From positions 17,576-81,575 of IMG/VR virus record IMGVR_UViG_3300037882_000610: 64,000 bases of DNA; one strand, given 5' to 3'. The translations under genes were made by a program, and so were the position numbers. Position 1 is the first letter of the stretch; each line of letters begins with the position of its first letter. Origin of the DNA: a virus (lineage: Duplodnaviria; Heunggongvirae; Uroviricota; Caudoviricetes). The notes below the pieces were generated by a model. That model had not been told where the DNA came from and ran no database searches. It saw only the letters and a program-made list of their open reading frames with translations. Below, one piece after another: positions 9,352-59,177 of this stretch.

Positions 9352-9392
9352 AAGCCCCTTCCCTCTCTATGGGAGGGGGCTTTATTCTTTTA
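9352..9392 (+). terminator. rho-independent terminator after capsid gene
   Basis: 7-bp stem aagcccc/ggggctt with inner imperfect stem, then ttattctttt. Confidence 0.55.
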
Positions 9393-9396
9393 GAGT

Positions 9397-9870
9397 ATGG
9401 GTGAAATCGAAGCTGAAATGGAGCGTAAGAGGCAGGCTAGCAGATTGGCCTCCCAACGCTACTATGCCCGCAATAGAGATGCTGTAAAGACGAGAACACT
9501 TGCTTACGGTCAACGGCCTGAAGTCAAAGTACGTAGAAAAATTCTCAACAATGAGAACATCAACGTTGCGATTCGCAAGGCAGAGTGGCGAAAAGCTAAC
9601 CCTCATAAGATGGCTGCGTACAAGCGCAGACGTAAGGGCGTGGAAGCTACGGCCACTCCCTCTTGGGCCGAAGATGAGTGGGAAAGCTTTACTATGGCGG
9701 AAATCTACAGTCTAGCCAAACTTCGAACAGAAGCTACAGGCTTCGACTGGCATGTAGACCATATCGTCCCTCTTGTTTCTAAGGTAGTTTGTGGACTCCA
9801 CTGCTTTGCCAATCTACAAGTAATACCTGCAACAATGAATCTACGCAAAGGAAATAAGCATGCCACTTGA
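9397..9870 (+). CDS. HNH homing endonuclease, paralog of 24586..25068
   Basis: FDWHVDHIVPL...CGLHCFANLQ...N..KGNK (HNH). C-terminal about 60 aa nearly co-linear with the other copy. Confidence 0.7.
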   Translation: MGEIEAEMERKRQASRLASQRYYARNRDAVKTRTLAYGQRPEVKVRRKILNNENINVAIRKAEWRKANPHKMAAYKRRRKGVEATATPSWAEDEWESFTMAEIYSLAKLRTEATGFDWHVDHIVPLVSKVVCGLHCFANLQVIPATMNLRKGNKHAT

Positions 9871-25478: not shown

Positions 25479-25912
25479 AAGCCCTTGACATTGCAGTAAA
25501 ACTCATTGCGAAGTTTGAAGGCTGTCGCCTCCAGGCTTACAAGGACATTGTTGGAATCCCTACCATCGGGTATGGTGAGACCAAGGGTGTAAAGATGGGC
25601 GATGTTTGGACGCAGGCCAAGGCTGACGCTGAGCTGCGGAGCCGCACACAAGAGTTCCTAGAGGGAGTCTTGAAGGCTGCACCCAAGCTAGCAGCGTTCA
25701 CGTCGAATCAACAAGCTGCCTGCACTTCATTGGCCTACAACATTGGCCTTGGGGCATTCGCTGGTAGCACAGTTGCCAAACGCATTGCAACAGGCGACCG
25801 GGCAGGAGCAGCAGATGCTTTCCTACTCTGGAACAAAGCGGGTGGACAGGTTGTCCAAGGCCTAGTCACTCGTCGCCAAGAAGAGCGTCGTGTCTTCATG
25901 TCACCAGAATGA
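25475..25912 (+). CDS. endolysin, GH24 (T4-type) lysozyme
   Basis: FEGCRLQAYKDIVGIPTIGYGETKG: catalytic E-x8-D-x5-T triad spacing. Confidence 0.8.
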   Translation: MKALDIAVKLIAKFEGCRLQAYKDIVGIPTIGYGETKGVKMGDVWTQAKADAELRSRTQEFLEGVLKAAPKLAAFTSNQQAACTSLAYNIGLGAFAGSTVAKRIATGDRAGAADAFLLWNKAGGQVVQGLVTRRQEERRVFMSPE

Positions 25913-26508
25913 CTGTAGGTATCTACCAAATTCTTAACACTGCAACTGGAAAGTCCTACGTTGGCAGTTCAGTGTGCATTGCCAGACGTTTCAGCAAGCA
26001 TAAAGCTCTACTCAGGAGTGGCAAGCATGTCAATGCCAAGCTGCAAGCTAGCTGGAACAAGCATGGTGAATCTGTGTTTGTGTTTTCTGCTTTAGAGTAT
26101 TGCGACGAAGGCATGCTCGATGCTAGAGAACAGGCGTGGATGCAGAAGTTGAATGCTGTCAAACAAGGCTACAACATCAATCCTGTTGCAGGTAGCAATC
26201 GAGGCTACAAACACACCGAAGAGTCGAAGCTACTCATCTCCAAAGCTGTATCTGGCAGGGAAGTCTCAGAAGCTACTCGCAACAAGCGTGCTGCTCTTAT
26301 GACCGGGACCAGTGTACCACAAGAAGTCAGAGAGAGGATTTCTCTAAGGCTCAAAGAAATTTCAAAGTCTGCGGACTTCCCTGGTAGGAGAAATCTTGAC
26401 AGGACTGGAACGAAGCAGACTCCAGAGCAGATTGCCAAGCGAGTCGCAGCAACTGCAAGAACGAAATCTATCAAAGCTGAGCAGAAGCTTGGCGCAACTG
26501 AAAGGTAA
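25909..26508 (+). CDS. GIY-YIG homing endonuclease (I-TevI/Seg-like)
   Basis: GIYQILNTATGKSYVGSS...RRFSKHK...NAKLQASWNKHG...E...GYN, C-terminal NUMOD-like repeats. Confidence 0.8.
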   Translation: MTVGIYQILNTATGKSYVGSSVCIARRFSKHKALLRSGKHVNAKLQASWNKHGESVFVFSALEYCDEGMLDAREQAWMQKLNAVKQGYNINPVAGSNRGYKHTEESKLLISKAVSGREVSEATRNKRAALMTGTSVPQEVRERISLRLKEISKSADFPGRRNLDRTGTKQTPEQIAKRVAATARTKSIKAEQKLGATER

Positions 26509-29492: not shown

Positions 29493-30494
29493 TCAGGAAT
29501 GAGAGTTCTCTACGGCTTTCCAGTCTGCGTCTGTCAGCCCTCTGTCGTTAAGGTAGAGGGCTGTCATCTCAGCATGCTTATGTCCTAAGAGAGTTTGAAC
29601 CACTTCTGGCTTCATTTTCTCTGCGATGTAGGTGCGTGCAGACAGGGATCGGCATTCGTGAAGGCTGGGCCACTCGAACTGCTTGTAGGCCTCAGGTCCG
29701 CAGACAGCTACGATGTGCTCACGGAATCTCGCGCTTAGCGATGACATCTCGATAGGCTTGCCATTCTTCTTGCGAAGAAGCGTAGGCCCTTCGGCTCCGA
29801 TGTCTTTGCAGAGTTCTATGATTTCACCAAGCGTGATGCCAATTGCTTCAAGCTTCAAGTCAAGTGGGATAGCTACTCGGGCTCCGACTAGCTTCCTAGC
29901 TTTCTTCTGTTGTTCGATTCGCAAATGACCGTCCACAACATCCTCGAACTTCATCTTCACTAAGTCACCTCTACGTTGACCTGTAGCTAGAGCAAGTAAG
30001 AGCATGGCTGGCACCCACCGTTGAGGGCCAGACAATGCAAGGTGATACATAGCTTGCCACGTCTCCAAGGTCAGGCGTTTCCTAAGGCCTGGGGCTGCGG
30101 GAGTTTTGACGTGTGCCGCTGGGTTGTTATCTGCGATACCGTTGGCTATAGCCTCAACATATACATCTTTCAACTCAGATAAGACTCGTCCTGCTGAATG
30201 GGGAGAAAAAGTCTTCAGTTGTGTGGCAATCTCGAACGGCTTGATGGCTCGTAGTGGTCTGTCACCCAAGATACGTTGGATATGTCTGATAGAGCATCCA
30301 CGATTCTTGAGAGTCTGTTGGTGATAGCCTCGTTCAGAGACGATCCTCTGGAAGGTTTCTAACCACTCTGACATGGTTGGGCCTTCAGGGACGACCTGAG
30401 TTGGCGCAGGGGTTTGCGCTACTGGAGGGACGGACGAAGCTGCAATAAGTTGCCGAGCTTGCTTCAAAAGCTTTTTGAGTTTCTTCTTTTTCAT
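29493..30494 (-). CDS. int: tyrosine integrase / site-specific recombinase
   Basis: R (LATGQRRGDL), HxxR (HECRSLSAR), catalytic Y (TALYLNDRG); 333 aa. Confidence 0.8.
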   Translation of the reverse strand: MKKKKLKKLLKQARQLIAASSVPPVAQTPAPTQVVPEGPTMSEWLETFQRIVSERGYHQQTLKNRGCSIRHIQRILGDRPLRAIKPFEIATQLKTFSPHSAGRVLSELKDVYVEAIANGIADNNPAAHVKTPAAPGLRKRLTLETWQAMYHLALSGPQRWVPAMLLLALATGQRRGDLVKMKFEDVVDGHLRIEQQKKARKLVGARVAIPLDLKLEAIGITLGEIIELCKDIGAEGPTLLRKKNGKPIEMSSLSARFREHIVAVCGPEAYKQFEWPSLHECRSLSARTYIAEKMKPEVVQTLLGHKHAEMTALYLNDRGLTDADWKAVENSHS

Positions 30495-30585: not shown

Positions 30586-31110
30586 ATGGACTTCACATCA
30601 ATCGTAAAGACTGTAGCGCCTTGGATCGGTACAGCACTAGGCGGGCCTCTAGGAGGCATCGCTGTAGAAATGGCTACCAAGGCCTTGGGCGTGTCAGATA
30701 AAACGACTGAGGGGCTTAAAGCAGCCCTTGCCGGGGCCACTGCTGCGGATATGCTTGCCTTGAAGAAGGCAGATCAAGATTTTCAGACTCAAATGACTGA
30801 GCTGGGATTCAAAAATCAAGCGGACCTTGAGGGCATCGCCGCCAATGATCGGGCGTCAGCTCGTGACATGCAGAAGAGCATCCGCTCTTGGGTGCCTTCA
30901 GCCCTCTCAATCCTCATCGTCTCTGGCTTCTTCGTTTTGCTTGGCGGGATGATGACGGGCTGGCTAACAATCTCTGAGAGCCAAGCCTTGCTGTTGATGC
31001 TAGGCTCTCTCACGACAGGATTTGGTGTGGTGATGTCTTATTGGTTTGGAAGTACCAGTGGCAGCTCTGAAAAGACAGCCCTGCTGGCTAAGGCCTCACC
31101 AATCAAGTGA
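30586..31110 (+). CDS. holin-like membrane protein (3-TM, GTA-holin-like)
   Basis: Internal ATG 30586 with RBS AAGGGA. Motif ADLEGIAANDRASARDMQK then two TM helices. Confidence 0.35.
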   Translation: MDFTSIVKTVAPWIGTALGGPLGGIAVEMATKALGVSDKTTEGLKAALAGATAADMLALKKADQDFQTQMTELGFKNQADLEGIAANDRASARDMQKSIRSWVPSALSILIVSGFFVLLGGMMTGWLTISESQALLLMLGSLTTGFGVVMSYWFGSTSGSSEKTALLAKASPIK

Positions 31111-31580
31111 AGCCCGCCGATTGTTGCCCTGAGAAGCCTGTCCTGGCAAAAGGGCTTTGCAAACTATGCTACAGTAGAAGTCGATCAGACTATTTCAAAG
31201 CGTACAAGAAAGAGAACCCCACGACGAATGAGTCTTGGCAGATTCGTAAACATGATCCTGTGCAAAAAGACAGGGACGTTCAGACGTGGAAATGGAAGGC
31301 TCTGAAAAGGAACTACGGTCTGGGGAAAGACGAGTATTTGGCAATATTGGCAGAACAAAATTATGCTTGCAAGATATGCCAGAGACAGTTCTCAGAACTG
31401 ATTACCAGTAAGAAGCGTACACCAGAGAACGTAGACCATTGCCACACTTCAGGGCATGTTCGGGGAATTCTCTGCCATAACTGCAACGCAGGGCTAGGGC
31501 ACTTCAAAGACGATCCTAGTGCTATGCGAGCTGCCGCTCTGTACATAGAAACGACAAAAGCTCCTCAGACATCAGCCTGA
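31107..31580 (+). CDS. endonuclease VII (T4 gp49-like Holliday junction resolvase)
   Basis: CKLCY...ACKICQ...VDHCHTSGHVRGILCHNCNAGLGHF. Confidence 0.75.
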   Translation: MKPADCCPEKPVLAKGLCKLCYSRSRSDYFKAYKKENPTTNESWQIRKHDPVQKDRDVQTWKWKALKRNYGLGKDEYLAILAEQNYACKICQRQFSELITSKKRTPENVDHCHTSGHVRGILCHNCNAGLGHFKDDPSAMRAAALYIETTKAPQTSA

Positions 31581-33344: not shown

Positions 33345-33545
33345 TCAGAGACTGTTCAGGTCTGTAACGTGAATGTCGCCATTGTACACGACAGGAAGAC
33401 TTCGGTGTTGCTTCTCAACCACAAAATCCATTGCTGTCAGGTCTTCGTCAATGTTCTTTGCGACGAAGGGCAAATTCTTAGAATTGAGAAAAGCCTTAGC
33501 TCGTGTACAAGCTGGGCAGTTGTTCTTTGTGTAGATTGTAATCAA
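33345..33545 (-). CDS. nrdH: glutaredoxin-like protein NrdH
   Basis: 66 aa, CPAC redox motif near N-terminus; adjacent to RNR genes. Confidence 0.7.
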   Translation of the reverse strand: MITIYTKNNCPACTRAKAFLNSKNLPFVAKNIDEDLTAMDFVVEKQHRSLPVVYNGDIHVTDLNSL

Positions 33546-34108
33546 GTTCCGTGCCTCTCTGTGTAGCCTGCACCTTGCAGGTTGAGTTGTTCAATCATTG
33601 CCTTCCTGTATTTCACAGCCGCCGCAAAGGCTGGTAGAAGCCCCAGCTTGGAAATCGAAAAGCATTTCTGAGATGGCAATCTTTTGGTTGGATTCTTCCA
33701 AAAGGCTGTCCAATAGTAGTTCCCACTTTTTCCGTTGCTTGTACACGACACGCCAGTCACACCGGATGAGTTTGTTACCTGCTTCTTCTTGTTACGGCAA
33801 TTCACCTCGAAAGGTATAACGCGAAGGTTAGTAATGCAGTTGTTGTGGGAGTCGCCGTCTATGTGATCTACAGTCCCATTAGGAAGGCCATGAAATAGCT
33901 TCCAGATTATGATGTGGATAGGATAATCGCACATCTCCAACATCACGTGGGCGTAGCGTTTTTTCTTTTTACTCCCCGCCACACTACCGGCTGGGAGACG
34001 GACGTAGCCAACGCCACGTCCGTTTATCACGTCATGTTTCCATCTCAAAAACGTGGGGCTAGTCTCGTCGTAGTAGAAATGAGCGTGCCAATCAATTTCA
34101 TCTTGCAT
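33542..34108 (-). CDS. HNH-AP2 homing endonuclease (paralog family 1 of 4)
   Basis: YYDETSPTFLRW...VDHIDGDSHNNCITNLR (HNH) plus SSGVTGVS...YWTAFW (AP2-like). Start moved to internal Met because the promoter -10 lies downstream of the ORF-track ATG. Confidence 0.65.
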   Translation of the reverse strand: MQDEIDWHAHFYYDETSPTFLRWKHDVINGRGVGYVRLPAGSVAGSKKKKRYAHVMLEMCDYPIHIIIWKLFHGLPNGTVDHIDGDSHNNCITNLRVIPFEVNCRNKKKQVTNSSGVTGVSCTSNGKSGNYYWTAFWKNPTKRLPSQKCFSISKLGLLPAFAAAVKYRKAMIEQLNLQGAGYTERHGT

Positions 34109-34125
34109 GATGCCTCCAAAGCGAG

Positions 34126-34154
34126 ATTGTAGCATGAAGTTCTCGCTTTGTCAA
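34126..34154 (-). promoter_or_regulatory. consensus sigma70-type promoter (- strand) TTGACA-N17-TACAAT driving HNH-nrdH
   Basis: -35 at 34154..34149, -10 at 34131..34126. Followed by GGAGG and ATG at 34108. Confidence 0.55.
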
Positions 34155-39797: not shown

Positions 39798-40356
39798 CAG
39801 CGCCTCCCCATTGGGCTGCCATGGCTTCTGCGATGCCCGCGAAAGTCCGGTCCCGGACTTTCCAACGATCAGGGCTAGGCGGAAGCTTATGAATCCTCTG
39901 TTCTCTCCCTTCCACTATGTTTGTAGGTACAAGCTTAGGAAGGTTCTTCAACCAAAGGCAAGTAGCTTTAGTCTCCCCGTGTCCAAACATCCAAGGTTGT
40001 ATAGTTTGATCCGGCTTACGCCACTTCGTGGACATGATACAGACTGGATTCTCGATAGCAATTCTCTCAATAGGGCTGTTCGCAAGCCTCGTGAAAAATT
40101 CAATTGCTGCCTGCTGTCTTCCATCTGCGATCTTTGCAGCAAAATGTCTTGCTCCGCTGACTGCTAGATGCGTACAGGGAGGGTGCGCAATCATCAAATC
40201 CCATCCTTGGTCAATGATGTCGAATACATCTCCTTTGTAGTGATAAGGACTTCCGTCCTCTGCATCTAACAAATCGCATGACCAGGCATCATGGCCCAGT
40301 TTTCGGAACGCCTCCCTCACACGCCCACTGTATTCACAGGCGACTAGAACGCGCAC
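39781..40356 (-). CDS. short protein with C5-cytosine-methyltransferase-like motif IV (PPCT..S..G)
   Basis: VLVACEYSG ... MIAHPPCTHLAVSGARH; only 191 aa, other MTase motifs not seen. Confidence 0.3.
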   Translation of the reverse strand: MRVLVACEYSGRVREAFRKLGHDAWSCDLLDAEDGSPYHYKGDVFDIIDQGWDLMIAHPPCTHLAVSGARHFAAKIADGRQQAAIEFFTRLANSPIERIAIENPVCIMSTKWRKPDQTIQPWMFGHGETKATCLWLKNLPKLVPTNIVEGREQRIHKLPPSPDRWKVRDRTFAGIAEAMAAQWGGAVDKRT

Positions 40357-40922
40357 GTTCCACCTTCCAAGTGCCTATCAGTGTAGCCTGCATATTGCTC
40401 GTTCAATTCTTTCATCTTTTCCTTTCGAAAATTCACAGCCGCTTGGAACGATTCTGTAGAGAGCCCCATGAAGTATTTGCTACCTCTGGTGCCATCTAGA
40501 TTGCTCCACTGAGCTACCCACCCCGAATAGACCTCACCTCGCTTGGTTCTGTGTTTCTGTGAGACTCCCGTTGTACCCGATACATTGTCGTGCCGCCGTA
40601 TCTTGTTTCTAGCGTTCAAGGTAGAGTCCACAAGACGGAGATTACCGATTTTGTTGTTCGACCTATCTCCGTCCTTGTGATCTAGCATCTTGCCAGCCGG
40701 TACGGAACCGTGATGCAATTCATAGACTACGATGTGAACATTGTAATCAACATCGAACAGACTGAGCCTGAAATAGCCGTCGTTCATTCGTCCTCCGGCT
40801 ACAGAATCCCTAGCATGTTCTAATTTGCACAGACCTTTGCCAGAGTAGCGGTCACAAGAAAATCTCAGATAAGTTGGGCTAGTCTCGTCGTAGTAGACGT
40901 GTTCTGACCAGTTAATATTCAA
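40344..40922 (-). CDS. HNH-AP2 homing endonuclease (paralog 2 of 4)
   Basis: VYYDETSPTYLRF...LDHKDGDRSNNKIGNLR...SGTTGVSQ...YSGWVAQW; TTG start. Confidence 0.7.
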   Translation of the reverse strand: MNINWSEHVYYDETSPTYLRFSCDRYSGKGLCKLEHARDSVAGGRMNDGYFRLSLFDVDYNVHIVVYELHHGSVPAGKMLDHKDGDRSNNKIGNLRLVDSTLNARNKIRRHDNVSGTTGVSQKHRTKRGEVYSGWVAQWSNLDGTRGSKYFMGLSTESFQAAVNFRKEKMKELNEQYAGYTDRHLEGGTCAF

Positions 40923-45131: not shown

Positions 45132-45460
45132 CAGAAGTCCGTGTAGTTGCCGGATTCGACAGCCTCGTACAGGTCATTCAAGTCCCTGAACAGAGCCACG
45201 CTCCTGTTGTTGCGGAAGTGGCCTTCCAAGGCGTTGCCTTCGGCATCAACGGGCACCATGTACGCTCCGATGGAGCCTCCATTGATGAGGAAGTTCAGTT
45301 CGAATCGCTTCTCACCGAGAACCAGAATGTCCCCTGGCCGTTCCAACTTCCGCACATCGGTGACGGTCTGGGCTTCCTTCAGCCAACGTTGGGCGTTCCT
45401 GTATCCTTCGCTCATCTCAACCTCCTTGAACTCGTGCACGAATGGTGGCGAAATTCTCAT
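45128..45460 (-). CDS. hypothetical protein (110 aa)
   Basis: ORF track. Confidence 0.35.
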   Translation of the reverse strand: MRISPPFVHEFKEVEMSEGYRNAQRWLKEAQTVTDVRKLERPGDILVLGEKRFELNFLINGGSIGAYMVPVDAEGNALEGHFRNNRSVALFRDLNDLYEAVESGNYTDFW

Positions 45461-47003
45461 TGATGAGAATCTTGCCGTCCTTGAAGACTGTCTGAAGCAG
45501 ACTGCTATCTTCTTCCTCAGGCGTCACTTGGTCACTCTGCTTCAGTGTGCCGTCAGCCCCCCTGTAGACGCAGATCAGACCACGGGCAGACTTCTTGGTG
45601 CCGTCATCCGTCTTCGGGTCTTTGAACAACTCCAGGCCCTTGCCATCGACAACAGCATACGTGGCCTTGATTGCCATGCCCAGCGTGTCACGGCTGACCA
45701 TCTGATACGTGTAGCTGCCCACACCGAACACGACATTGCTGGAGGCGAAGCCCTTCTCTTGCAAGCGACGGAAGATTTCGTCCGCACGCTCCAGAGTGAT
45801 GGAGTCACCGTAGATCAGGCCGATGCTCGGGTCCAGCAGCTTGTAGCCGTTGGCGTTGAGCGTACCACCGAACTCATCGTACAGCACTTGAATGCTGCCC
45901 TTCACTTCTTCTTCAGTGATCGGCTTGAGATGGAAGTCATGGATAGCCGGGGCGTTCCATTGCTCCTTGACAAAGATGCCTTGCGAGGATCGGACAATCT
46001 CATCCTCACGGTAGCCGCAGATGACTCGCACGGGGTCGCCAGAGTCGGGACGCACCACAACCTTGCCCGGCAGCACACCGAGAGCAGGACGTGCACGAAT
46101 CTCGTCCTTGAGAGCCGGCAGGTACTTGGTCAGCACTTGCCAGTAGTCGAGCGTATCGCTGACGACAGACACGATGCCAGCCGGGTAGTCCTTGGTGATC
46201 CAACGCTTGATGGTCTCCAGCTCGCCATCCACAGCGATGCCCAGAGAGGTCACGCTGTGCTCAGAGGCCGGGACAGACGCTGCAATGAACGTGCCTTGTG
46301 GTGAGCCACCGTAGAGCTGGTCGATGTAGTCGAGGGCAGCCACAGTGTCAGTGCCGCAGTGGCCTGCCAGCAAGTGGGCGAAGCCTGACATTGCAGCAGC
46401 GTGCCGACCGAACATGCCACGAGCAGAGAAGTCGTGGAACTGGAAAACCAAGTGATCCAGATTGGCACAAGTCTCCAGGCCGAAGCGCTTGCCCAGCAGG
46501 TAGAACTGGTAGGCGACAGTCGCGTTGGTGACGATAGGCCACACTTCTTGCGACAGCACAGTCTCCAGATATGTCACCAGCCATGCGAAGCGGGGGTCCG
46601 TGTTCGTGACGGTCAGGAATGCCACCTTCAGGGGCACCTTGGAGCCCTCAGGCAAGGCCTTCAGCTCGATAGGCAGGTAGCCCAGCTTGTGCAGCTCTTG
46701 GAAGTGCTCCATGCTGACGGAGCCAGCGCCCAGGTAGCCTTCGACACGGGCCTTCCACTCGGCAATCACGGTCTTGAACGGACGCTTGAAGAAAGTGTCG
46801 TTCCACTCACCAATCAGGACATTCTTGATGAATGCCTGAACACCCGCCACGATGACGAGATGTTCACCCGGACCCCACTTGGCGTACTTGCCAGAGCGGG
46901 CCGTGAAGTTGGCGTAGATTTGCGTGGTGCCGTCAGCCATGAACTTCTTGTGGCTCAGCTTGTAGGCGTCGGTCTGGGCGGTTGCAACGGGGGTGTAACT
47001 CAT
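45417..47003 (-). CDS. nicotinamide phosphoribosyltransferase-family enzyme (NadV/Namat-like)
   Basis: 528 aa, NAMPT-type fold signatures (DAYKLSH, FGRHAAAMSGFAH, SVPASEHSV, GDSITLERA). Confidence 0.75.
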   Translation of the reverse strand: MSYTPVATAQTDAYKLSHKKFMADGTTQIYANFTARSGKYAKWGPGEHLVIVAGVQAFIKNVLIGEWNDTFFKRPFKTVIAEWKARVEGYLGAGSVSMEHFQELHKLGYLPIELKALPEGSKVPLKVAFLTVTNTDPRFAWLVTYLETVLSQEVWPIVTNATVAYQFYLLGKRFGLETCANLDHLVFQFHDFSARGMFGRHAAAMSGFAHLLAGHCGTDTVAALDYIDQLYGGSPQGTFIAASVPASEHSVTSLGIAVDGELETIKRWITKDYPAGIVSVVSDTLDYWQVLTKYLPALKDEIRARPALGVLPGKVVVRPDSGDPVRVICGYREDEIVRSSQGIFVKEQWNAPAIHDFHLKPITEEEVKGSIQVLYDEFGGTLNANGYKLLDPSIGLIYGDSITLERADEIFRRLQEKGFASSNVVFGVGSYTYQMVSRDTLGMAIKATYAVVDGKGLELFKDPKTDDGTKKSARGLICVYRGADGTLKQSDQVTPEEEDSSLLQTVFKDGKILINENFATIRARVQGG

Positions 47004-47012: not shown

Positions 47013-47852
47013 TTAGATTTGTTCCACGTACTGGCTGAATTGCTTCTTAGCCTCTGGACGCAGATTGTACACGAAGATGCGATCAAACAGATCATTCAGC
47101 TCCACGAATTTTTCGGGATTGGTGAACATCCCGTGTGTCACGTACAAGCACAACTCAGCCGGCTCGAACTCGCGTGCAACCCTGCCCAGCTCAAGGAAGG
47201 TAGCTCCACCATCGCAGAGGTCGTCCACGATGCAGACAGTCTTGCCAGTCAGCCTGCCACCATAGGGCAGCACTGTCTTGGTGATCTTGCCTTCAGGGCT
47301 GCGGACCTTCGATGCACAGATGACTTCCGTTCCCAAGGCCACTTGATTGTGCTTGAAGATTTTCTTCTCAGCACCAGCGTCAGGAGCCAGCAGCACGTCG
47401 AACTTGGGCAGCTCCCTTGCACACTTTTCTTGCGGATAGGGAGCCAAGCGATCCAGCAACGCCTCCAGCACAGTCGAGTGGGCGTCATCAACGCACACGT
47501 ACTTGAAGTTGAGCTGGTTGATGAATTGGCAGGCAATCTTGAGGGCGTGACCTTCTCCCAGATTCGCACGACGGTCCTGCCGTGCATACGGGAAGTAGGG
47601 AATCCAAGCTGAGATTGCCACGTCGAGGTTGACAGCGCGGATAGCGTCCACTAGCTGTGCTAGAGCGAACAGGTCGTCGTTGCTTGAGAACTCAACCTTG
47701 ATTCCCACTTCAGTCAGCTTGGGGCTGGCGAGATTGGCGAGGATTTCGGTTGTGAGCTGCACGCCCACTTCTCCGCAAGGGAACTTCCACACCTTGGGAT
47801 CGTAGAACTCGGCTGCATCGTTTGTGAAGCCCTTGAATGCGATCTTCAGCAT
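47013..47852 (-). CDS. ribose-phosphate pyrophosphokinase-family enzyme (Prs/Adps-like)
   Basis: PYFPYARQDRR flag region and PRPP-binding loop CIVDDLCDGGATF. Start at internal MLKIAFKG with GGAG. Confidence 0.7.
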   Translation of the reverse strand: MLKIAFKGFTNDAAEFYDPKVWKFPCGEVGVQLTTEILANLASPKLTEVGIKVEFSSNDDLFALAQLVDAIRAVNLDVAISAWIPYFPYARQDRRANLGEGHALKIACQFINQLNFKYVCVDDAHSTVLEALLDRLAPYPQEKCARELPKFDVLLAPDAGAEKKIFKHNQVALGTEVICASKVRSPEGKITKTVLPYGGRLTGKTVCIVDDLCDGGATFLELGRVAREFEPAELCLYVTHGMFTNPEKFVELNDLFDRIFVYNLRPEAKKQFSQYVEQI

Positions 47853-48190
47853 TTGCGAATCTCCACGTCGCCAGAGCCGACTTTGCCGACCCAGATGAAT
47901 TGGACTTCGCCCAGCTCGGAACGAATCTCGAATGTCGTCGTCCACTCACCTTCGTGGTAGGACGTGGCAGCGTAGCCGCCTGTGATGCGGGTGTTGAGCA
48001 CGCTGGTCAGGTCGCCAGTGACTTCAACCAAGCGACTGTGGCCTGAGCTGCTGTCAATGATGACATCAGGGCTGAGAGCATCCTTCGTGTTCAGGACAAC
48101 GAAGTCCCGATTCACGTCATCTCCCATCTCCACGCTCATGCCTTCGATTTCAACGCCAGCTACCCAGTAGCCAAAGTCATTGTAGTTCAC
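47846..48190 (-). CDS. hypothetical protein (114 aa)
   Basis: ORF track. Confidence 0.35.
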   Translation of the reverse strand: MNYNDFGYWVAGVEIEGMSVEMGDDVNRDFVVLNTKDALSPDVIIDSSSGHSRLVEVTGDLTSVLNTRITGGYAATSYHEGEWTTTFEIRSELGEVQFIWVGKVGSGDVEIRKC

Positions 48191-48542
48191 TAAGCAACTC
48201 CTTCATTTGTTGATTGAATGACTGGATGGCCCAGCCGATCTTTGCACCTGTCAAGTCGGTGTAGCCTTTTTCATGCAACCACTTCAGCAGGACAGGGGCG
48301 CTGATCCTGTAGTAGTAGATGCGACCTTCTGACCTGACGAAGCGCTTGTGAGGAAAGTCCTCGGGGAACTTCGTCACATACGGAAAGGCCACTATAACAT
48401 TGTTCGCACCAAGAAGATAGGCATCCAGACAAGCTTTTTCAAGCTTCACGTAGTCTTTTCGCCTCATGCTCCTCAGGGTTGCGAGGTAAGCCTTGGTAGG
48501 CCTGCCTCGTAAACGCTCTTTCTCAGTTCTGAGATTTTCCAT
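48177..48542 (-). CDS. hypothetical protein (121 aa)
   Basis: ORF track. Confidence 0.35.
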   Translation of the reverse strand: MENLRTEKERLRGRPTKAYLATLRSMRRKDYVKLEKACLDAYLLGANNVIVAFPYVTKFPEDFPHKRFVRSEGRIYYYRISAPVLLKWLHEKGYTDLTGAKIGWAIQSFNQQMKELLSELQ

Positions 48543-48984
48543 GCACCTCCAAGTATTGGACTGCTCTTCTTACCAACATCAAGTCGTCTCTGAAAAAGCC
48601 AAGGCCTCGATTGCAAGTGTTGCATAGCAGCCCACGAACCCTGTCAGTCTCGTGGCAATGATCCACGGCAAAGGACATACGCTTGCGTGGGGTGTTGCCC
48701 TCTCCTGCTGGATTCTTGGTTCTGCATATGTCACAAGCAGAGCCTTGCTGCTCTAGCATGGCTTCATAAGCTTCTACAGTTAGCCCGAATGTTTTAGACA
48801 AGTGTCTTCGTCTGTTACCCAACCAAGTACCGGGGCTGTTTGCTCTGGCACTTTTCCGAGCTGCATCGTCGCAAGGCTTACACCTATACCCTTTACCATC
48901 TTTGGAACTTTTGCTGTTGTAGAACGCCTCCAGAGGTTTCAGTTCCTTGCATGTACCGCACTTCTTCAATGACAGTCCCGCCAA
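48523..48984 (-). CDS. endonuclease VII family protein (second copy)
   Basis: CGTCKE...CKPCD...CDICR...VDHCHETDRVRGLLCNTCNRGLGFF. Confidence 0.7.
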   Translation of the reverse strand: MAGLSLKKCGTCKELKPLEAFYNSKSSKDGKGYRCKPCDDAARKSARANSPGTWLGNRRRHLSKTFGLTVEAYEAMLEQQGSACDICRTKNPAGEGNTPRKRMSFAVDHCHETDRVRGLLCNTCNRGLGFFRDDLMLVRRAVQYLEVHGKSQN

Positions 48985-51389
48985 TTCAAACCTAAGATGT
49001 AGTCAGCGGCAAGGGTGACATTCAATTTGTAGTAGCGGCTAGTCTCTACCACAGCTTCTTGGATGGCTCGTCCAGCTTCACACCAGCCTATGAAGTAGCC
49101 CTTTGCAGAGTGTCCAATTTCGGACCAACCCGGATTGTCATTCTTGAACTCTCTGGCTTCTTCCTCTGTCTTAAACATCTTCCACTTGACCAGAGACTTG
49201 TGCATCTCAAGCTGTGCTTCGTCGTGGTACGCAATCAGTTGCTGGACGAACTTCGCATTCTTCCAGTCATCCTTGAAGAAGTCAACGTACAGCCCAGCAG
49301 CCTTCAGCTTCTGCTCATGCAGCACCATAGCACGCTTGGCACAGATAACACCAGCAGATTGGAATAGGCTGTTGATGAGAGCAGAAGCCGAACGAGTCGG
49401 AATCTTGCGGCCATCAAGCCCGAGGATAAACTTCTTACCACCTGTAGTCTCCCAGTAATACTTCAGCTTCTCACCAAGCAACGCCAGAGGCTTTGCCGCT
49501 TCCCAGTAGGCCTTGTGGATCAGCGTTCCAATTTCAACGCTACATCCCACAGTCTTCGCAACTCGTGCAGGCTGGGCACCATAGGCACATGCGTACTTGA
49601 CTGGCTTAGCTGCTCCCCGAGTGAACGGGAAGGCCTTGCCAATAGCCTCAGCAACCATCGTCTCGATGAGCTTGGCTGTCTTGGTGTGCACGTCATTGGG
49701 CTTCTCCTGTGTGAGCGAGTTGCAATATGGCTTGCCCTCTTCCGTGTCGTACTTCCAGCAGTAGTGCGACTCGATCATTGCCTCCAGAGAGGCGAAGTCG
49801 TAGCCCATCTGCACGAAGCCTTCGGCCACGTCCACACCGAACTGTGCTCGCATCTTATCACCGTACAGCGACGTGATGCGAGGAACATTGGCTACGAGGC
49901 GATGCTTGAAACGAGAAGTACCAGCACCACAGGAGTCAGCAGGAGTAGGAATACGGCCATCGACGGAGATACGCTCGGCAGCCAGGAAGCCTTTGCCAGC
50001 GAACTCATCATCGTCGTCAATCTCGTCAGGATCATAGCCACCTCCAAGAATGCTGTTACGTCGATGGGAGTACGTCAGGTACTCGCTCACCAACTTGGCA
50101 TGCGGGAACAAGTCCGCAAGCTTCAGAAGTTGCGGGTCGATTTCCTTTTCCATCCCAACCGTGATAGTCGGGTTCGTGTAGACCTTCAGCGGACGCTTCA
50201 TGTCCCACCTCAGGAGCTTTTCTCGGAGCCGGGAAGGGCGTACCCCCAACTCTTCGCAACGATGGTCTCTGAAGGGGCTAGAGAGGGTCTGTTCGACATA
50301 CCTCTCAACCGTCTCCTCGAACTTCTCTTGCGTCAGCTTCTGCTTCTTCGTGTTGACCGTGAGGTCACGTTCCTTGTACTGGCTTGGTTGCCAGCCCAGC
50401 TCCACCAGCCAACCCTTGATGTGGGTCGTGTCCTTGATAGCCGCAGGCTCATGGGTCTTGATTGGCGTGTCGCCCAAAGGCAGCTTCCATTCATTCCCAT
50501 AGGCCTTCAAATACCAGCCATCGTCTCGTTGCTCCAGAGCCCCTTCGTGCTTGTTGGCAAAGTTTACCATGTGCACACTCGGCGTGCCATCCTTCTTGAA
50601 TGGCTTCGCAGGGCCTTGGTACTCCTTCAGCTTCGTCTTGCCCATCAGCTTTGGAGGAAGCGTAGGTTCGACGATAGCACGAAGCTCTTCCATCAGCTTG
50701 TCCAGCTCTCGAACGTTGGCCTGCGCCAACAGAGCATCGAACCAGAAACCTCTGTGGCTCTGACGAGTCACAATGTCACGCACTTGCTGCTCTAGGCAAA
50801 TAGGATTCGCCCAGGGCCAGTCTCCAATCTCCTCCAGCAACGCCCAGTACAGCTTGACGTTCACGCCGCAGTCACGGTCATTGTAGTCCAGCATCTTGGG
50901 ATGGTATTGACCAAACTCGGCTCCCTTAGGTGCATGGGTCTCAATCAAGCCCAGAGCCATAGCTTCTGAACGCCAGTCGATCTTCTCGTAGCCTAGGCGC
51001 TTGCCCCACTCATCCAGACTGTGCCCGCCATAACGGTCAGGGTTCAGGCACTTCGACCACACAAGCGTGTCAATGATTTCTACGGGGTTGCCGTCGATGT
51101 AGCACTGCTCGCCGATAACGTAGTCGATGCCGAAGACGAGCTTCAGTACCAACAAGTCATAGTCGATGATGTTGTGGCCGATGATGACCTTGAGCTTGCG
51201 AAACATGGGCAGAAAGCCGTTACGCAGCTCTTCCATACCCGCAAAGCGATAAACCGCCCCGGTGTCGATGTCGTGAATGACAGCGCACCAGAGGCGGAAA
51301 GTCGGCTTGATAGTGAATGGGGCAGTTAGGTAGTCGATTGTTGTGTGATCTAGAAGACCATTGCCTTCTAAGTCAAATACTCCCCGCAT
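48966..51389 (-). CDS. DNA polymerase, family A with 3'-5' exonuclease
   Basis: N-terminal FDLEGNG (Exo I), palm motifs R...K...YG..YG (KPVKYACAYGAQP); 807 aa. Confidence 0.85.
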   Translation of the reverse strand: MRGVFDLEGNGLLDHTTIDYLTAPFTIKPTFRLWCAVIHDIDTGAVYRFAGMEELRNGFLPMFRKLKVIIGHNIIDYDLLVLKLVFGIDYVIGEQCYIDGNPVEIIDTLVWSKCLNPDRYGGHSLDEWGKRLGYEKIDWRSEAMALGLIETHAPKGAEFGQYHPKMLDYNDRDCGVNVKLYWALLEEIGDWPWANPICLEQQVRDIVTRQSHRGFWFDALLAQANVRELDKLMEELRAIVEPTLPPKLMGKTKLKEYQGPAKPFKKDGTPSVHMVNFANKHEGALEQRDDGWYLKAYGNEWKLPLGDTPIKTHEPAAIKDTTHIKGWLVELGWQPSQYKERDLTVNTKKQKLTQEKFEETVERYVEQTLSSPFRDHRCEELGVRPSRLREKLLRWDMKRPLKVYTNPTITVGMEKEIDPQLLKLADLFPHAKLVSEYLTYSHRRNSILGGGYDPDEIDDDDEFAGKGFLAAERISVDGRIPTPADSCGAGTSRFKHRLVANVPRITSLYGDKMRAQFGVDVAEGFVQMGYDFASLEAMIESHYCWKYDTEEGKPYCNSLTQEKPNDVHTKTAKLIETMVAEAIGKAFPFTRGAAKPVKYACAYGAQPARVAKTVGCSVEIGTLIHKAYWEAAKPLALLGEKLKYYWETTGGKKFILGLDGRKIPTRSASALINSLFQSAGVICAKRAMVLHEQKLKAAGLYVDFFKDDWKNAKFVQQLIAYHDEAQLEMHKSLVKWKMFKTEEEAREFKNDNPGWSEIGHSAKGYFIGWCEAGRAIQEAVVETSRYYKLNVTLAADYILGLNWRDCH

Positions 51390-51556
51390 GGGTTCCTTTC
51401 AAATGAAATTCTCTAGGGCTTCGTCGTAGCCATCTTGCCAACCTCTTTCGAAGTCATCATGATCTTGCGTCAAGACAGCATAAGGATTTGGCGTGGAAAG
51501 TCCCCTAATGTCGAAGTCATTCTTGCCAGCCTCAAACCCTAACTCATAGGCCGTCT

Positions 51557-51973
51557 TCACGTTGCCAGGACGTTCAAGGTATCCCCGTACTTCCTGACAC
51601 GCTTCATGTCACCACGGAACAAGCTTCTCCGCAGGTTACAGAAAGAGTCAGCCAGCTTCCCCTTGCGGCCAAGTTCGTTGGAACGGCAACGGATGAGGTA
51701 TTCGTGGCGAGTCTCACCTTCTTTATGGGTCATAGACAGAACTGCGTCTACAACTGCCTTCTCAAAGAGAGTTCTCAGAATAGCTTCGGTGCAGTCTGTG
51801 TCCTCCAGGATGTCGTGGAGCTGACCAAGGATACGCACCCGCTCATCTCCAGGGAACATCGCATGCGCAGCCGCTTCCACTTCGTCCAAATGAGTCGTGT
51901 ACGGGTCATCCCCGTACTTCTGGCCTGCGTGGTACTTGGCTGCTAGGTGCCGCGCAAGGTCAAGATCATTCAT
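51557..51973 (-). CDS. RelA/SpoT-type HD domain small alarmone hydrolase
   Basis: KYHAGQKYGDDPYTTHLDEV and LGQLHDILEDT match the (p)ppGpp-hydrolase HD signature (H.GQ.R..G.PY..H...V; HDv.EDT). Confidence 0.55.
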   Translation of the reverse strand: MNDLDLARHLAAKYHAGQKYGDDPYTTHLDEVEAAAHAMFPGDERVRILGQLHDILEDTDCTEAILRTLFEKAVVDAVLSMTHKEGETRHEYLIRCRSNELGRKGKLADSFCNLRRSLFRGDMKRVRKYGDTLNVLAT

Positions 51974-52202
51974 TCTTCTCTCCTACAGGTTCTTGGTCAT
52001 CCACACAGCCTCTGTTGATGGCTTGTTGTGTGGCTTCGTTGTTGAGTCGGATCAATCCGCAATGCCAGCAGCTCCAGAAAGAGCCACCACAAATCTTACG
52101 TCTGAAGTTGTGCTGCGGCTTCCCCTTCGGTTTCTTGTACTTCATCGAGCCAGAAAACGTCCGAGTGGTATGTGTACCCTTCGACCGGAGATTTGTCGCC
52201 AC
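51966..52202 (-). CDS. hypothetical small Cys/His-containing protein
   Basis: ORF track; KICGGSFWSCWHCG. Confidence 0.25.
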   Translation of the reverse strand: MATNLRSKGTHTTRTFSGSMKYKKPKGKPQHNFRRKICGGSFWSCWHCGLIRLNNEATQQAINRGCVDDQEPVGEKNE

Positions 52203-52702
52203 GTGTCTTTAGTGCCACCATCCGCAGGTTCTGCCCCTTCTCCCCACGTGTATGCAAGACAAGCATTGGAGGCTCTAGCGACCTTAGCATTGCGGACGAA
52301 GAATGCGCCCATCCCAGCAGCCTTCGGCTCCGACTCAGCCCTGGCTCCCTGGGCAATTGCATCAAGAATTCTTTGCCTGCCATCAACTCCCGTAGCGTCT
52401 CGAAACATTTCGTGATACCAGTTGCTGGCACTTCCTGAGCTTGCTCGCTCTCCCTCATAGATGCCCTTTGCTGTAAGTGGTGCTGGCAAGTATAGCTGAA
52501 GTTCTTTGAAGAATTCCGGGCAATTGAGGAACAATTCCACAGCCAAATGATCGGCCCAGGCTGCCCCTCCACTTACAAGCTTGTACTCCTTCGATTGATC
52601 GAACCGACCAAGAGCGTCCTCGTACATCGCCTCCCACAGACACATCGTGTAGTGCTTGCCACGGTCCCGCCCCGCAGTCCCGATGATTGCTACGGCACGC
52701 AT
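52142..52702 (-). CDS. SLOG/DUF2493-like Rossmann-fold protein (putative)
   Basis: IIGTAGRD ... VSGGAAWADHLAVE. Confidence 0.3.
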   Translation of the reverse strand: MRAVAIIGTAGRDRGKHYTMCLWEAMYEDALGRFDQSKEYKLVSGGAAWADHLAVELFLNCPEFFKELQLYLPAPLTAKGIYEGERASSGSASNWYHEMFRDATGVDGRQRILDAIAQGARAESEPKAAGMGAFFVRNAKVARASNACLAYTWGEGAEPADGGTKDTWRQISGRRVHIPLGRFLAR

Positions 52703-52905
52703 CTGTCACTCCCGAAGCAGAGAATGTAGTAAGGGTCCGTGTCATACGGGCTCTCATCAAACATCCAGTCGAAGTCACGGCCACAGGCCCTGCATCGGGC
52801 CATGTAGCGAATTTTCCCTTGCTCGTCTTCAGTCTCCCATACACCCGTAGGCAGCAAGTCTTCGTCTAGTTCCACAGCTCCTCCTCTTCCTCTAGCAGTG
52901 CACAA
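52690..52905 (-). CDS. small zinc-ribbon protein (71 aa)
   Basis: CTARG...CRACG...CFGSDRC. Confidence 0.3.
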   Translation of the reverse strand: MCTARGRGGAVELDEDLLPTGVWETEDEQGKIRYMARCRACGRDFDWMFDESPYDTDPYYILCFGSDRCVP

Positions 52906-54455
52906 CCGTCCTTCGGGCCTTCTCGCCGCAGGTCAGCCATCAGCTTGCGAACGGCAAAGCCGGTCGAATGCGCCTTAGCACCTTCCCTGAGGTAGCCCTT
53001 GACAGTCTCGTTGTACTCCAGCACGTTGATGGCTCGTGTACAGGCCACGTACAGCAGGTTCTGTTCCTCTGTAGGAAGCCCGATCCACTCGCCCTCTTCG
53101 TTGTAGCCGCTCTTGAAGTCGTCTTCAACGATGACTTGGAACCATTCCCGACCCTTGCTCTTGTGGGCCGTCGTGAACGTCACCAGCGGACGGGCAGCAT
53201 TTGAGAAGTTCTCCAGAATGTCGATCCACTCCAGGGCCTTCCCGTCCTCCACGATCTTGACGATGCGCTTCAGCTCGGGGTCATTCTTCGTGCCATCGGC
53301 CTTCAGCTCTTCCCAGTCCAGATAGGGCACAACCTTGTCGTGCTTCACATCTTTCTTGATGCCCTGAGCCAACGAGAAGGCCGAGAACAAAAGCTTCACG
53401 AAGTCCTTAACGTCGATTTCCAATGCCACCTTTGTGCCATTCAGAATCTCGGGGACAGCAGCAGACAGCAGGGCACCATTGGTGCGGAAGAGCCGGGTGT
53501 AGGACTTGGTACGGTCAACCAAGTCAAAGCGTGCACAGCGGCTTTCGATAGTCTCGTTGCCAGTGATGACCATAGCACACTCCAGCACAGCCGTAGCGAT
53601 GTCAGCGATTGCTTGGCCGTAGCGGAAGGATTTGGTGAGCTTGCGCTCTTCAGCTTCCACCCTAGCCATTGCATTCACAGCGCCACGCCAGCCGTAGATG
53701 GCCTGACGGGAGTCGCCCACCATGACCACTTGCATGTGCGGAGCTTGGTTCATAACGATGTCCAAAACACAAGGCGTAGTGTCTTGAAACTCGTCCACGT
53801 ACAGCACGTCGTAGCCCTTCAGAACGGGCTTGCTGAGCTGGTACAGCTTCAGGTAGGTGTCATGGGAGGCCTGCACCACAGACTTCGTGTTGATGCGGTC
53901 TTCCCACAGCCGACGTGCCAGAGGCAGAATCTTGTCAACGCAGTAGGCAATGTTTCCCACGTTGTCATGCAGCTTTTCCTTGAGGTCGCCCTTCGGGACA
54001 TGCTTGTCTTCGATTACCATGTCGGCAGATTGCTCGAAGCGGGCCACGGTGTCACGCACCAGCAGGCCGAAATGGCTGGCTGTGATGGTTTCACCAGTGC
54101 GAGTCTCGTAAGACTCGATTTCGTAGAGCTTGCCAATCTCAGTGCCTGTCCAACCACAGTTCTGGTATTTGCCAGGAGGACGCTTCAGCTTGTCCTTCAG
54201 CTTCGAACCGAAGGCAGCATAGGCAATGCTGTGGGTAGTACGGCAAGTCACATGCTGAGGGAACTTCAGAGCAGCCTCTTCCGCAGTGACCTTGTTGAAA
54301 GCAAGGTACAGCGAGGGCAGATCAAGCGCCTCAGCCATCATCACCAATGTGGAAGTCTTGCCAGAGCCTGCACAAGCCTCAATCTTCAAGATTCGGATAG
54401 CTGACGTGATTGCAGTGACGCATGCTTGTTGTTCGAGTGTTGGGGTGCGGCTCAT
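52866..54455 (-). CDS. UvrD/Rep-like superfamily 1 DNA helicase
   Basis: Walker A ACAGSGKTS, Walker B YVDEFQD, QAIYGWRGA, TAHKSKGRE, YVACTRA. Confidence 0.8.
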   Translation of the reverse strand: MSRTPTLEQQACVTAITSAIRILKIEACAGSGKTSTLVMMAEALDLPSLYLAFNKVTAEEAALKFPQHVTCRTTHSIAYAAFGSKLKDKLKRPPGKYQNCGWTGTEIGKLYEIESYETRTGETITASHFGLLVRDTVARFEQSADMVIEDKHVPKGDLKEKLHDNVGNIAYCVDKILPLARRLWEDRINTKSVVQASHDTYLKLYQLSKPVLKGYDVLYVDEFQDTTPCVLDIVMNQAPHMQVVMVGDSRQAIYGWRGAVNAMARVEAEERKLTKSFRYGQAIADIATAVLECAMVITGNETIESRCARFDLVDRTKSYTRLFRTNGALLSAAVPEILNGTKVALEIDVKDFVKLLFSAFSLAQGIKKDVKHDKVVPYLDWEELKADGTKNDPELKRIVKIVEDGKALEWIDILENFSNAARPLVTFTTAHKSKGREWFQVIVEDDFKSGYNEEGEWIGLPTEEQNLLYVACTRAINVLEYNETVKGYLREGAKAHSTGFAVRKLMADLRREGPKDGCALLEEEEELWN

Positions 54456-58640: not shown

Positions 58641-59177
58641 TTAAGCCTTTCCATGCCTATTGGTGTAGCCAGCACCTTGGGCGTTAAGTTGTAAAATTTG
58701 TTCCTCCCGCCACTGGCAGGCTAGGTGGAACGCAGCGTCTCCGTATGTGCCCACAGAGTATGACTTGTACCTTCTTTTACCATCCAGAGTCTTGATGCCG
58801 GCTTGCCAACTATCAGACTTTGAATGGTAGTTCACTCCACAGACACCCGATGTGTTTCTGAAGTTCATCTTGGTATTTCTATTGTTTACAGCTAGCGGAA
58901 TCGCTCTCAGATTACTTCTAAAGTTGTTCCGCCAATTCCCGTCTTCATGATCTACGATGTACCCTTCCGGGACTTCCCCGTTGAACATTTCGTAGATGAT
59001 CTTGTGCACAGGATGCTGAACGCCTCTCAGCTTGATTCTATAGCATCTAGAGCCGACACTACCTGCAACAGCATCCTTCTGTACGAGCAAAACACTATCT
59101 TGAAAGCCAGTCCAAACATTTATTGCCCATCTCAGGCACGTTGGGCTACTTTCATCGTAGTAAAACTCAGACCACAT
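58641..59177 (-). CDS. HNH-AP2 homing endonuclease (paralog 3 of 4)
   Basis: FYYDESSPTCLRW...VDHEDGNWRNNFRSNLR...SGVCGVN...SWQAGI. Confidence 0.7.
   Translation of the reverse strand: MWSEFYYDESSPTCLRWAINVWTGFQDSVLLVQKDAVAGSVGSRCYRIKLRGVQHPVHKIIYEMFNGEVPEGYIVDHEDGNWRNNFRSNLRAIPLAVNNRNTKMNFRNTSGVCGVNYHSKSDSWQAGIKTLDGKRRYKSYSVGTYGDAAFHLACQWREEQILQLNAQGAGYTNRHGKA

Follow-up and report, generated by a model that had tools for sequence, protein, structure and literature searches.

What does a phage gain from a short RelA/SpoT-type hydrolase placed among its replication genes, and on which nucleotides would such an enzyme act? The question is raised by 64,000 nucleotides (the window) of a tailed phage of the class Caudoviricetes, positions 17,576 to 81,575 of IMG/VR record IMGVR_UViG_3300037882_000610, in which an open reading frame (ORF) at 51557-51973 encodes a protein of 138 residues. 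An initial annotation, made from the letters and translations, had described it as a RelA/SpoT-type hydrolase without a synthetase domain. Motifs, profiles, predicted fold and length bear this description out: judged by its active site and its modelled structure, the protein is a small alarmone hydrolase (SAH). We further consider it probable, taking what follows as one combined statement, that it is an active 3'-pyrophosphohydrolase of the RelA/SpoT homologue (RSH) type, that its range takes in (p)ppGpp and also (p)ppApp, and that it erases host alarmones or the products of toxSAS enzymes.

Family assignment, fold and active site

Profile searches, the check suggested by the initial annotation, lead to RelA/SpoT-type hydrolases. 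The protein matches PHROG_990 ('metal-dependent phosphohydrolase', E=5e-38), the N-terminal hydrolase part of the NCBIfam model TIGR00691 (spoT_relA, E=4.8e-9) and, as its sole Pfam match, the N-terminal half of HD_4 (PF13328, the RelA/SpoT-type HD domain, E=6.4e-5). The hydrolase domain spans all 138 residues, and there is no synthetase domain. Among proteins of solved structure the top sequence match is 7SMG, the '(p)ppApp hydrolase' Aph1 of Bacteroides caccae (E=1.7e-11), and behind it come Lmo0812, mycobacterial Rel, Drosophila Mesh1 and further SAHs; up to E=1, the PDB matches consist of RSH hydrolases and SAH-type HD proteins alone. A profile built from 126 family sequences ranks the PDB entries in a similar way, with Aph1 at 90 bits (9e-25), PaSAH at 76, Mesh1 at about 54 and Rel at about 50-60.

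The predicted fold agrees. An AlphaFold2 model built on 12 close relatives (pLDDT 96.9, pTM 0.89) is divided by DSSP into nine helices, where eight are described for Aph1. Foldseek searches against the PDB place the four chains of Aph1 (7smg) first, at 30% identity and a TM score of 0.85-0.87 on both lengths, followed by Mesh1, PaSAH, TdActSpo2, TtRel, RelH, SpoT, BsRel and RelSeq. The first 44 chains are all RSH hydrolases and the first protein outside the family, a generic HD protein, appears only at rank 45 with E=0.27; the objection that the best matches might be generic HD enzymes of other substrate classes therefore fails. Many viral models in BFVD share the SAH fold, with TM scores up to 0.96.

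The active site was examined in an alignment of 152 sequences, consisting of the query, Aph1, the SAH of phage PVP-SE1 (gp220) and the 149 best-scoring relatives. The HD dyad is followed by the ED pair in the HDxxED arrangement (L52-H-D-I-L-E-D-T59), which is kept in 150-152 of the 152 sequences (H53 in 152, D54 in 151, E57 in 152, D58 in 150). The motifs HxxQ...Y..H (H15 in 148, Q18 in 146, Y25 in 149, H28 in 150) and K..D...N (K106, D109 and N113, each in all 152) are at least 96% conserved and line up with identical residues in Aph1, PaSAH and Rel. Y129 is likewise present in all 152 sequences, Y20 in at least 146, G21 in 142, S117 in 132 and K128 in 128. Among these conserved residues are the counterparts of the Mn2+ ligands of RelSeq (H53, H77, D78 and D144), its ED catalytic pair and its ribose-contacting asparagine. 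Nothing in the conservation of the active site suggests a dead enzyme.

These results also bear on the idea that the ORF encodes a generic HD phosphohydrolase, such as a dNTPase or a nucleotidase, or that it is a chance ORF. Many phage homologues do carry no label other than 'metal-dependent phosphohydrolase', and the HD_4 score lies under the model's cut-off. Yet the ED pair after HD, the HxxQ...Y..H motif and the K..D...N motif are those of RSH hydrolases, the significant sequence and fold matches are all RSH enzymes, and the active site is conserved in thousands of homologues, which leaves this idea with next to no credibility.

The gene itself is real: it is present in the ORF list, it starts with ATG behind a Shine-Dalgarno sequence, and the identical 138-residue protein (MNDLDLARHLAAKYHAGQKYGDDPYTTHLDEVEAAAHAMFPGDERVRILGQLHDILEDTDCTEAILRTLFEKAVVDAVLSMTHKEGETRHEYLIRCRSNELGRKGKLADSFCNLRRSLFRGDMKRVRKYGDTLNVLAT) was called independently on a JGI contig of 81,575 bp. 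Two details of the initial annotation needed completing or correcting. It had given no strand, which is the minus strand, and of its motif string the motifs stand while two of the spacings do not, since the protein reads G-D-D-PY where the string had G-x-PY, and H-L-D-E-V (H-x-x-x-V) where it had H-x-x-V. The gene has a GC content of 54.4%, against 53.2% for the genome, with the coding-type order GC1>GC3>GC2, and its base composition is typical of the genome. Plus-strand ORFs that overlap it, inside a long run of minus-strand genes, were treated as by-products. A nucleotide search of deposited phages returned short patches only.

Specificity residues and two types of phage SAH

The nearest solved relative, Aph1, invites the assumption that the phage enzyme shares its substrate. 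Ahmad et al. (2023; PMC10083569) set the Aph family by six residues, D24, R96, D116, R119, K133 and Y134, and Aph1 gained hydrolysis of ppGpp only as the double variant D24R/R119A. Three of the six are matched in the query, where R95, K128 and Y129 stand for R96, K133 and Y134; the tyrosine equivalent to Y134 is a proposed contact to the substrate's pyrophosphate moiety (PMC10083569). The other three are absent. The D24 position is lost through a one-residue deletion (query Q18-K-Y20-G21), and a gap stands at this column in 150 of the 152 sequences; the same gap was seen again in a nine-sequence alignment that included Aph1, PaSAH and Rel. The loop D116-I-T-R119 is lost through a four-residue deletion, which leaves N113-L-R-R-S117, of the same length as in PaSAH and Rel, and the stretch KLADSFCNLRRS aligns to both without a gap.

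Both deletions are common to all 149 aligned relatives, all of which carry the motifs GQxYG and NLxxS. The Aph1 pattern (QxDK... and N-x-D-x-x-R) is kept in Aph1, in PVP-SE1 gp220 and in the SAH of Streptococcus phage K13, whereas the homologues of PAK_P1, phiK7A1 and Vibrio phage 193E37-1 are of the query type. By these residues, phage SAHs split into an Aph1-like type A and a type B that comprises the query clade. With three of the six signature residues missing, D24 and R119 among them, the query is better kept apart from the (p)ppApp-specific hydrolases of the Aph family, and specificity for (p)ppApp alone cannot be assumed. The nearest solved relative is (p)ppApp-specific but the query lacks its specificity residues, so the substrate range is not readable by homology.

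Comparison with individual enzymes draws the same line. The query shares with Aph1 a single domain of about 140 residues, its phage origin and its metal-binding and catalytic residues; it differs in having a near-invariant Tyr-Gly in place of D24 and in lacking the D116-I-T-R119 insertion. Aph protomers are described as compact and as free of the helices by which the core is flanked in Rel and PaSAH; the query has a comparable length and TM scores of 0.85-0.87 on both lengths, but one helix more in its model than the eight of Aph1. PVP-SE1 gp220, a stand-alone SAH of a lytic phage, is 38.8% identical over 93% of the query but keeps the Aph1-type QKDKGG loop and an N-S-D-V-R-R insertion, which makes it type A. 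As the only match in that genome, it is, we infer, the SAH tested in PMC7229694, where the SAHs of phages PVP-SE1 and SSU5 neutralise each of five toxSAS toxins (CapRel, PhRel, PhRel2, FaRel and FaRel2) in E. coli. The proteins of the Pakpunavirus and Otagovirus phages PAK_P1 (gp158), Adele (gp032) and phiK7A1 share GQxYG and NLxxS with the query, lack the Aph1 insertion and are 30-39% identical to it, although PAK_P1 gp158 is extended by some 20 inserted residues and by a C-terminal tail. PaSAH, the second-best PDB match to the family profile, aligns ungapped over the C-terminal K..D...N-L loop and the K/N-Y motif; it is cellular and dimeric, with about 190 residues and one more helix at its C-terminus (PMC10083569). 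Its N-terminal loop (QTLSGSPLPY) is longer, and in the fold alignment it is only 20-22% identical to the query. Mesh1, XccSAH and the ATfaRel of C. marina share the RSH hydrolase fold and catalytic motifs, but the Mesh1-type enzymes, of about 180 residues, are NADPH phosphatases, and ATfaRel is the antitoxin of a three-gene toxSAS operon of a kind not found among the ORFs scanned here.

SAHs of this family are widespread in phages. By tblastn (E<=1e-5), 410 genomes of deposited phages have a homologue, with identities of no more than about 40% among the matches listed; the largest groups are in phages of Pseudomonas (176), Vibrio (105), Streptococcus (35) and Klebsiella (30). The best 99 of these 410 records include none that bears the name SSU5, which was not searched directly. 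An exhaustive profile search returned 26,002 cluster representatives at E<=1e-3, of which 7,254 reach E<=1e-10; ten longer family members contain HD domains only, some of them in tandem copies. In a cluster look-up, ten relatives all proved to be metagenomic proteins without a name. Samples of the best 80 loci, which are not censuses, were classified in each of two collections. Those from IMG/VR comprised 49 loci of type A, 18 of type B and 13 unclassified, while those from 185,579 species-representative cellular genomes comprised about 20 of type A, a single one of type B (on a contig of a cyanobacterial metagenome-assembled genome) and otherwise long Rel/SpoT genes. Type B thus looks largely phage-borne. 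Phage SAHs have been known since 2020, and the query is another, divergent member; what is modestly new is that its clade, as far as these alignments go, is mostly phage-borne and without the Aph1 determinants.

Aph1 also suggests a role, since in a Bacteroides prophage it accompanies a toxin, the MuF-fused Apk2 (PMC10083569). On this model the query would be a strictly (p)ppApp-specific hydrolase that confers immunity against a (p)ppApp synthetase toxin of its own phage. Aph1 is indeed the best solved relative by both sequence and fold, and the matched residues R95, K128 and Y129 fit. The layout also exists in other phages: in Streptococcus phage K13 (locus L010, 443-3911) a portal gene is followed by those of a 527-residue minor head protein, a 69-residue protein and a type A SAH, which, in gene order, is the published arrangement of MuF-fused (p)ppApp synthetase toxins and the genes that confer immunity to them. 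A MuF homologue lies near the SAH in 4 of the 49 type A loci from IMG/VR but near none of the 18 type B loci. The query lies in a replication module rather than by the head genes. Pfam scans of the ORFs of at least 80 residues in the minus-strand module (29.5-63.6 kb) and of most of 0-29 kb, with the exception of the tape-measure gene, the head genes at 7290-9870, the genes of three large tail proteins and shorter ORFs, found neither a RelA_SpoT synthetase domain nor a MuF protein; the portal is of the Mu type, 499 residues long and without an extension. With no partner toxin found in the ORFs scanned, we do not read the SAH as an antitoxin of the toxSAS kind or as an immunity gene of the MuF kind. 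Together with the deletion of D24, D116 and R119 throughout the clade, this makes an Aph-type immunity function distinctly improbable.

Gene neighbourhood and what it suggests

The window is phage DNA, with a large terminase, a Mu-type portal, an S49 prohead protease, tail terminator and tube proteins, a holin and a lysozyme. Its major capsid protein shares 47-54% identity with its counterparts in Limnohabitans phage DC31, Curvibacter phage P26059A, Pseudomonas phage vB_PseuGesM_254 and KPP10-like phages. The SAH gene lies in a minus-strand module that encodes ribonucleotide reductase, a deoxynucleoside monophosphate (dNMP) kinase, a primase-helicase, a UvrD-like helicase, DNA polymerase I, endonuclease VII, a ligase and an SPFH protein (Table 1). 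No promoter-like site on the minus strand, nor any terminator-like site, was found at 51.2-53.0 kb, no Rfam match at 49-55 kb, and the 191 nucleotides upstream of the gene fold no better than shuffled sequences (z=0.76). The SAH appears to be read within a long operon. Two related metagenomic phages (L004 and L007), with SAHs that share 63% and 56% identity with the query, keep the order of helicase, SAH, DNA polymerase A and the PRS-like and NAPRTase-like genes, so the SAH is a stable part of the replication operon of this lineage.

Table 1. Positions in the window of the SAH gene, its functional segments and its neighbours, the latter in the direction of transcription
Feature	Coordinates	Strand	Remarks
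SAH coding sequence, including stop codon	51557..51973	minus	138 aa, 15.7 kDa, pI 6.4, ATG start
Shine-Dalgarno sequence AGGAGA	51979..51984	minus	5 nt upstream of the SAH ATG; read from sequence
HAGQKYGDDPYTTH, residues 15-28	51890..51931	minus	N-terminal substrate loop, clade Y20-G21, metal-ligand H28; translation, alignment
LHDILEDT, residues 52-59	51797..51820	minus	HD metal ligands and ED catalytic pair; translation, alignment
KLADSFCNLRRS, residues 106-117	51623..51658	minus	K106, metal-ligand D109, ribose-contact N113, short loop; alignment
K128-Y129	51587..51592	minus	equivalent to Aph1 K133-Y134; alignment
UvrD-like helicase	52866-54455	minus	first of the local order
71-aa acidic zinc-ribbon-like ORF (CRACG...C...C.P)	52690-52905	minus	between helicase and 186-aa gene
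186-aa protein	52142-52702	minus	upstream of SAH
Possible 59-aa basic ORF (C-x6-C-x2-C...C)	51966-52145	minus	fills an apparent 168-bp gap before SAH
53-aa acidic ORF (pI 4.1)	51399-51560	minus	GTG start; start overlaps SAH stop codon by 4 nt
DNA polymerase I	48966-51389	minus	after the 53-aa ORF
Endonuclease VII	48523-48984	minus	directly after DNA polymerase I
PRS-like gene (ribose-phosphate-pyrophosphokinase-like)	47013-47945	minus	310 aa; phrog_619, 1.4e-65
NAMPT-like gene	45417-47003	minus	528 aa; phrog_448, 1e-180

This setting lends some colour to the view that the SAH is a host-takeover enzyme for which (p)ppGpp is the sole relevant substrate, lowering the stringent response so that DNA of host and phage is still replicated, nucleotides are still made and translation goes on, with no part in anti-defence. 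The gene shares its operon with ribonucleotide reductase, dNMP kinase, primase-helicase and ligase, and its position is kept in relatives; the C-terminal loop has the length seen in Rel and PaSAH; and the stringent response can restrict phage (bioRxiv 10.64898/2026.01.27.700999). On the other side, the guanine-stacking arginines of Rel (R43 and R44 in TtRel; PMC10083569) are replaced by K19 and Y20, and the relatives that score highest against the profile are (p)ppApp-active enzymes. A NARP1-like gene pair and 14 tRNA genes in the window would in addition fit an investment in counter-defence, though they are no evidence on the SAH itself. We regard a function limited to (p)ppGpp as unlikely.

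The gene pair lies 3.6 kb downstream of the SAH and consists of the NAMPT-like and PRS-like genes. NARP1, composed of Adps and Namat, is a phage pathway that reconstitutes NAD+ and so counters defences that deplete NAD; the pair resembles it. Such a pair is also found near the SAH in PAK_P1, phiK7A1, L004 and L007, and within 8 kb of it at 6 of the 18 type B loci from IMG/VR, against none of the 49 type A loci. This association has a bearing on a further possibility, in which the main substrate is not an alarmone but the 2'-phosphate of NADP(H), or another phosphorylated nucleotide, and the SAH would refill NAD(H) together with the NARP1-like genes. Mesh1 and XccSAH do hydrolyse NADPH, but XccSAH, which is without the nicotinamide-riboside motif of Mesh1, is about 40-fold less efficient on it than reported for Mesh1 (PMC9765508). 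Mesh1 is also the lowest-scoring RSH hydrolase against the family profile. The co-occurrences fall largely within one related group of 90-100-kb phages and may therefore reflect shared ancestry rather than a functional link, and Vibrio phage 193E37-1, which has an SAH of the same type, has no NAMPT-like or PRS-like gene annotated within 3.5 kb. A non-alarmone main substrate is accordingly highly improbable.

In PAK_P1 (locus L003, 3989-8450) and phiK7A1 (locus L001, 6001-12393) the SAH lies not between a helicase and DNA polymerase I, as in the query, but in the company of genes for a phosphoesterase, an RNA ligase and a small P-loop ATPase, after which come the PRS-like and NAMPT-like genes. 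The same set occurs at 4 of the 18 type B loci from IMG/VR, and it looks like an RNA-repair and NAD-repair island. No RNA ligase was found in the 64-kb window.

The small genes around the SAH offer few further clues. No PADLOC model matched the SAH or any of its three small or unknown neighbours. Homologues of the 71-residue ORF lie near or adjoin the SAH in L004 (9497-9748) and L007 (8450-8773; BLASTP E=5e-6 and 4e-3). The 186-residue protein, whose gene does not adjoin the SAH in either of these phages, has no Pfam, PHROG or PADLOC match but more than 590 homologues, some of them labelled 'DNA helicase II' in JGI data. Its AlphaFold2 model (pLDDT 95) is closest, at a TM score of about 0.5, to YpsA, DprA and the Shosta protein ShosA (SLOG-type, Rossmann-like), and the motifs GTAGRD and SGGAAWAD are invariant in its family; going by the model, it looks like a member of an uncharacterised phage SLOG/DprA-like family. 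Pfam links the 53-residue ORF weakly to ribosome modulation factor (RMF), at E=0.038 and 14.5 bits where the cut-off is 27.9. Since RMF, which ppGpp induces, is basic and this ORF acidic, the resemblance may be no more than a shared small-helical motif. The ORF is not similar to the 53-residue DUF7336 gene that precedes the SAH in locus L005. The ATG of the 59-residue ORF overlaps the stop codon of the 186-residue gene (ATGA), and its stop end shares 8 nt with the start of the SAH; the loci compared yielded no homologue, and it may or may not be a genuine gene.

Other features of the window lie farther off. The 14 tRNA genes, interspersed with small ORFs, occupy 482-3313 on the plus strand (Lys x2, Cys, Val, Met x2, Asp, Ile, Glu, Asn, Trp, Arg, Phe and Pro). 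A tyrosine-integrase-like gene at 29493-30494 on the minus strand (Phage_integrase, 2.4e-15, and Phage_int_M) marks the junction of the structural and replication modules; the phage, with a genome of roughly 80 kb, otherwise looks lytic and, from its capsid relatives, reads as myovirus-like. Homing-endonuclease-like ORFs, whose types are HNH_3 alone or with AP2, endonuclease VII, and GIY-YIG with NUMOD3, are scattered over both modules (31107-31580, 33542-34135, 40344-40922, 48523-48984, 58641-59177, 25909-26508 and others). One of them adjoins the gene of the ribonucleotide reductase large subunit and another directly follows DNA polymerase I.

Proposed function and its meaning for phage biology

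The reading that we prefer, an SAH active on both kinds of alarmone, can be set out as a sequence of steps. The phage would make the single-domain enzyme from its replication and nucleotide-metabolism operon. By analogy with the family, H28, H53, D54 and D109 would hold a divalent metal (Mn2+ or Mg2+), the E57-D58 pair would activate a water molecule, and the 3'-pyrophosphate would be cleaved off a 3'-pyrophosphorylated purine nucleotide to give the 5'-nucleotide and pyrophosphate. (p)ppGpp and (p)ppApp alike would be accepted, and possibly tRNA pyrophosphorylated at its 3' CCA end; acceptance of (p)ppGpp is expected from the loss of D24 and R119 and from a C-terminal loop as long as that of PaSAH and Rel. 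During infection the enzyme would erase ppGpp made by the host, or the products of toxSAS and Tas1-type enzymes, and may in this way keep replication, nucleotide synthesis and translation running.

Published work gives this scheme its plausibility. Two phage SAHs neutralise toxSAS enzymes when co-expressed in E. coli, although we found no published test of a phage SAH during infection. MESH1 and ATfaRel restore the aminoacylation of tRNA pyrophosphorylated by FaRel2, and CapRel is an anti-phage system (PMC9712102). From the work on phage SAHs, on MESH1 and ATfaRel and on CapRel, the phage probably erases ppGpp, ppApp and perhaps pyrophosphorylated tRNA. Collapse of the stringent response and detoxification of toxSAS products, the two roles raised by the initial annotation, are both plausible by analogy (PMC7229694); judged from sequence, either counter-defence or relief from the stringent response may be the main benefit.

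Several points weigh against an enzyme of broad alarmone range. The HD_4 score of the protein, 23.2 bits, falls 4 bits short of the gathering cut-off of 27.2; three of ten scanned clade members pass it, at 28-40 bits, and we attribute the shortfall to a model tuned to long RSH enzymes rather than to exclusion from the family. Loss of the Aph1 determinants does not prove activity on ppGpp, and the invariant Y20 and S117 may define another specificity. The homologue of the Pakpunavirus Adele was described in a 2025 paper as a small alarmone hydrolase of unpredictable specificity (PMC12846349). The analysis spans the 64-kb window of the 81.6-kb contig, about 17 kb of which lie outside it.

A further reading makes the GQxYG/NLxxS proteins a distinct, essentially phage-restricted SAH subfamily with a substrate unlike that of Aph1, (p)ppApp, and that of Rel, (p)ppGpp. 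In its favour, the motifs are carried by all 149 aligned representatives and by 18 of the best 80 loci from IMG/VR, against 1 of the best 80 from cellular genomes. We think this reading unlikely too, but its most interesting version deserves mention. The SAH would then be a 3'-end healing enzyme that strips pyrophosphate from tRNA CCA ends modified by defence toxins of the CapRel or FaRel2 type. It would work alongside the phosphoesterase, RNA ligase and P-loop ATPase encoded next to it in PAK_P1-like phages, and also alongside the NARP1-like genes, in a multi-purpose counter-defence island.

Phage SAHs would be the simplest conceivable counter both to defences built on RSH synthetases (CapRel, FaRel, PhRel and Tas1-type enzymes) and to growth restriction by the stringent response. 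The protein described here is a divergent SAH of an uncultured phage whose capsid protein has its closest counterparts in phages of Limnohabitans, Curvibacter and Pseudomonas. Of more use may be the split between the two types, some type A genes adjoining MuF toxins and type B genes lying in replication or auxiliary-metabolism modules. Type B includes the homologues of PAK_P1-like phages (Pakpunavirus), which are being explored for the therapy of Pseudomonas aeruginosa.

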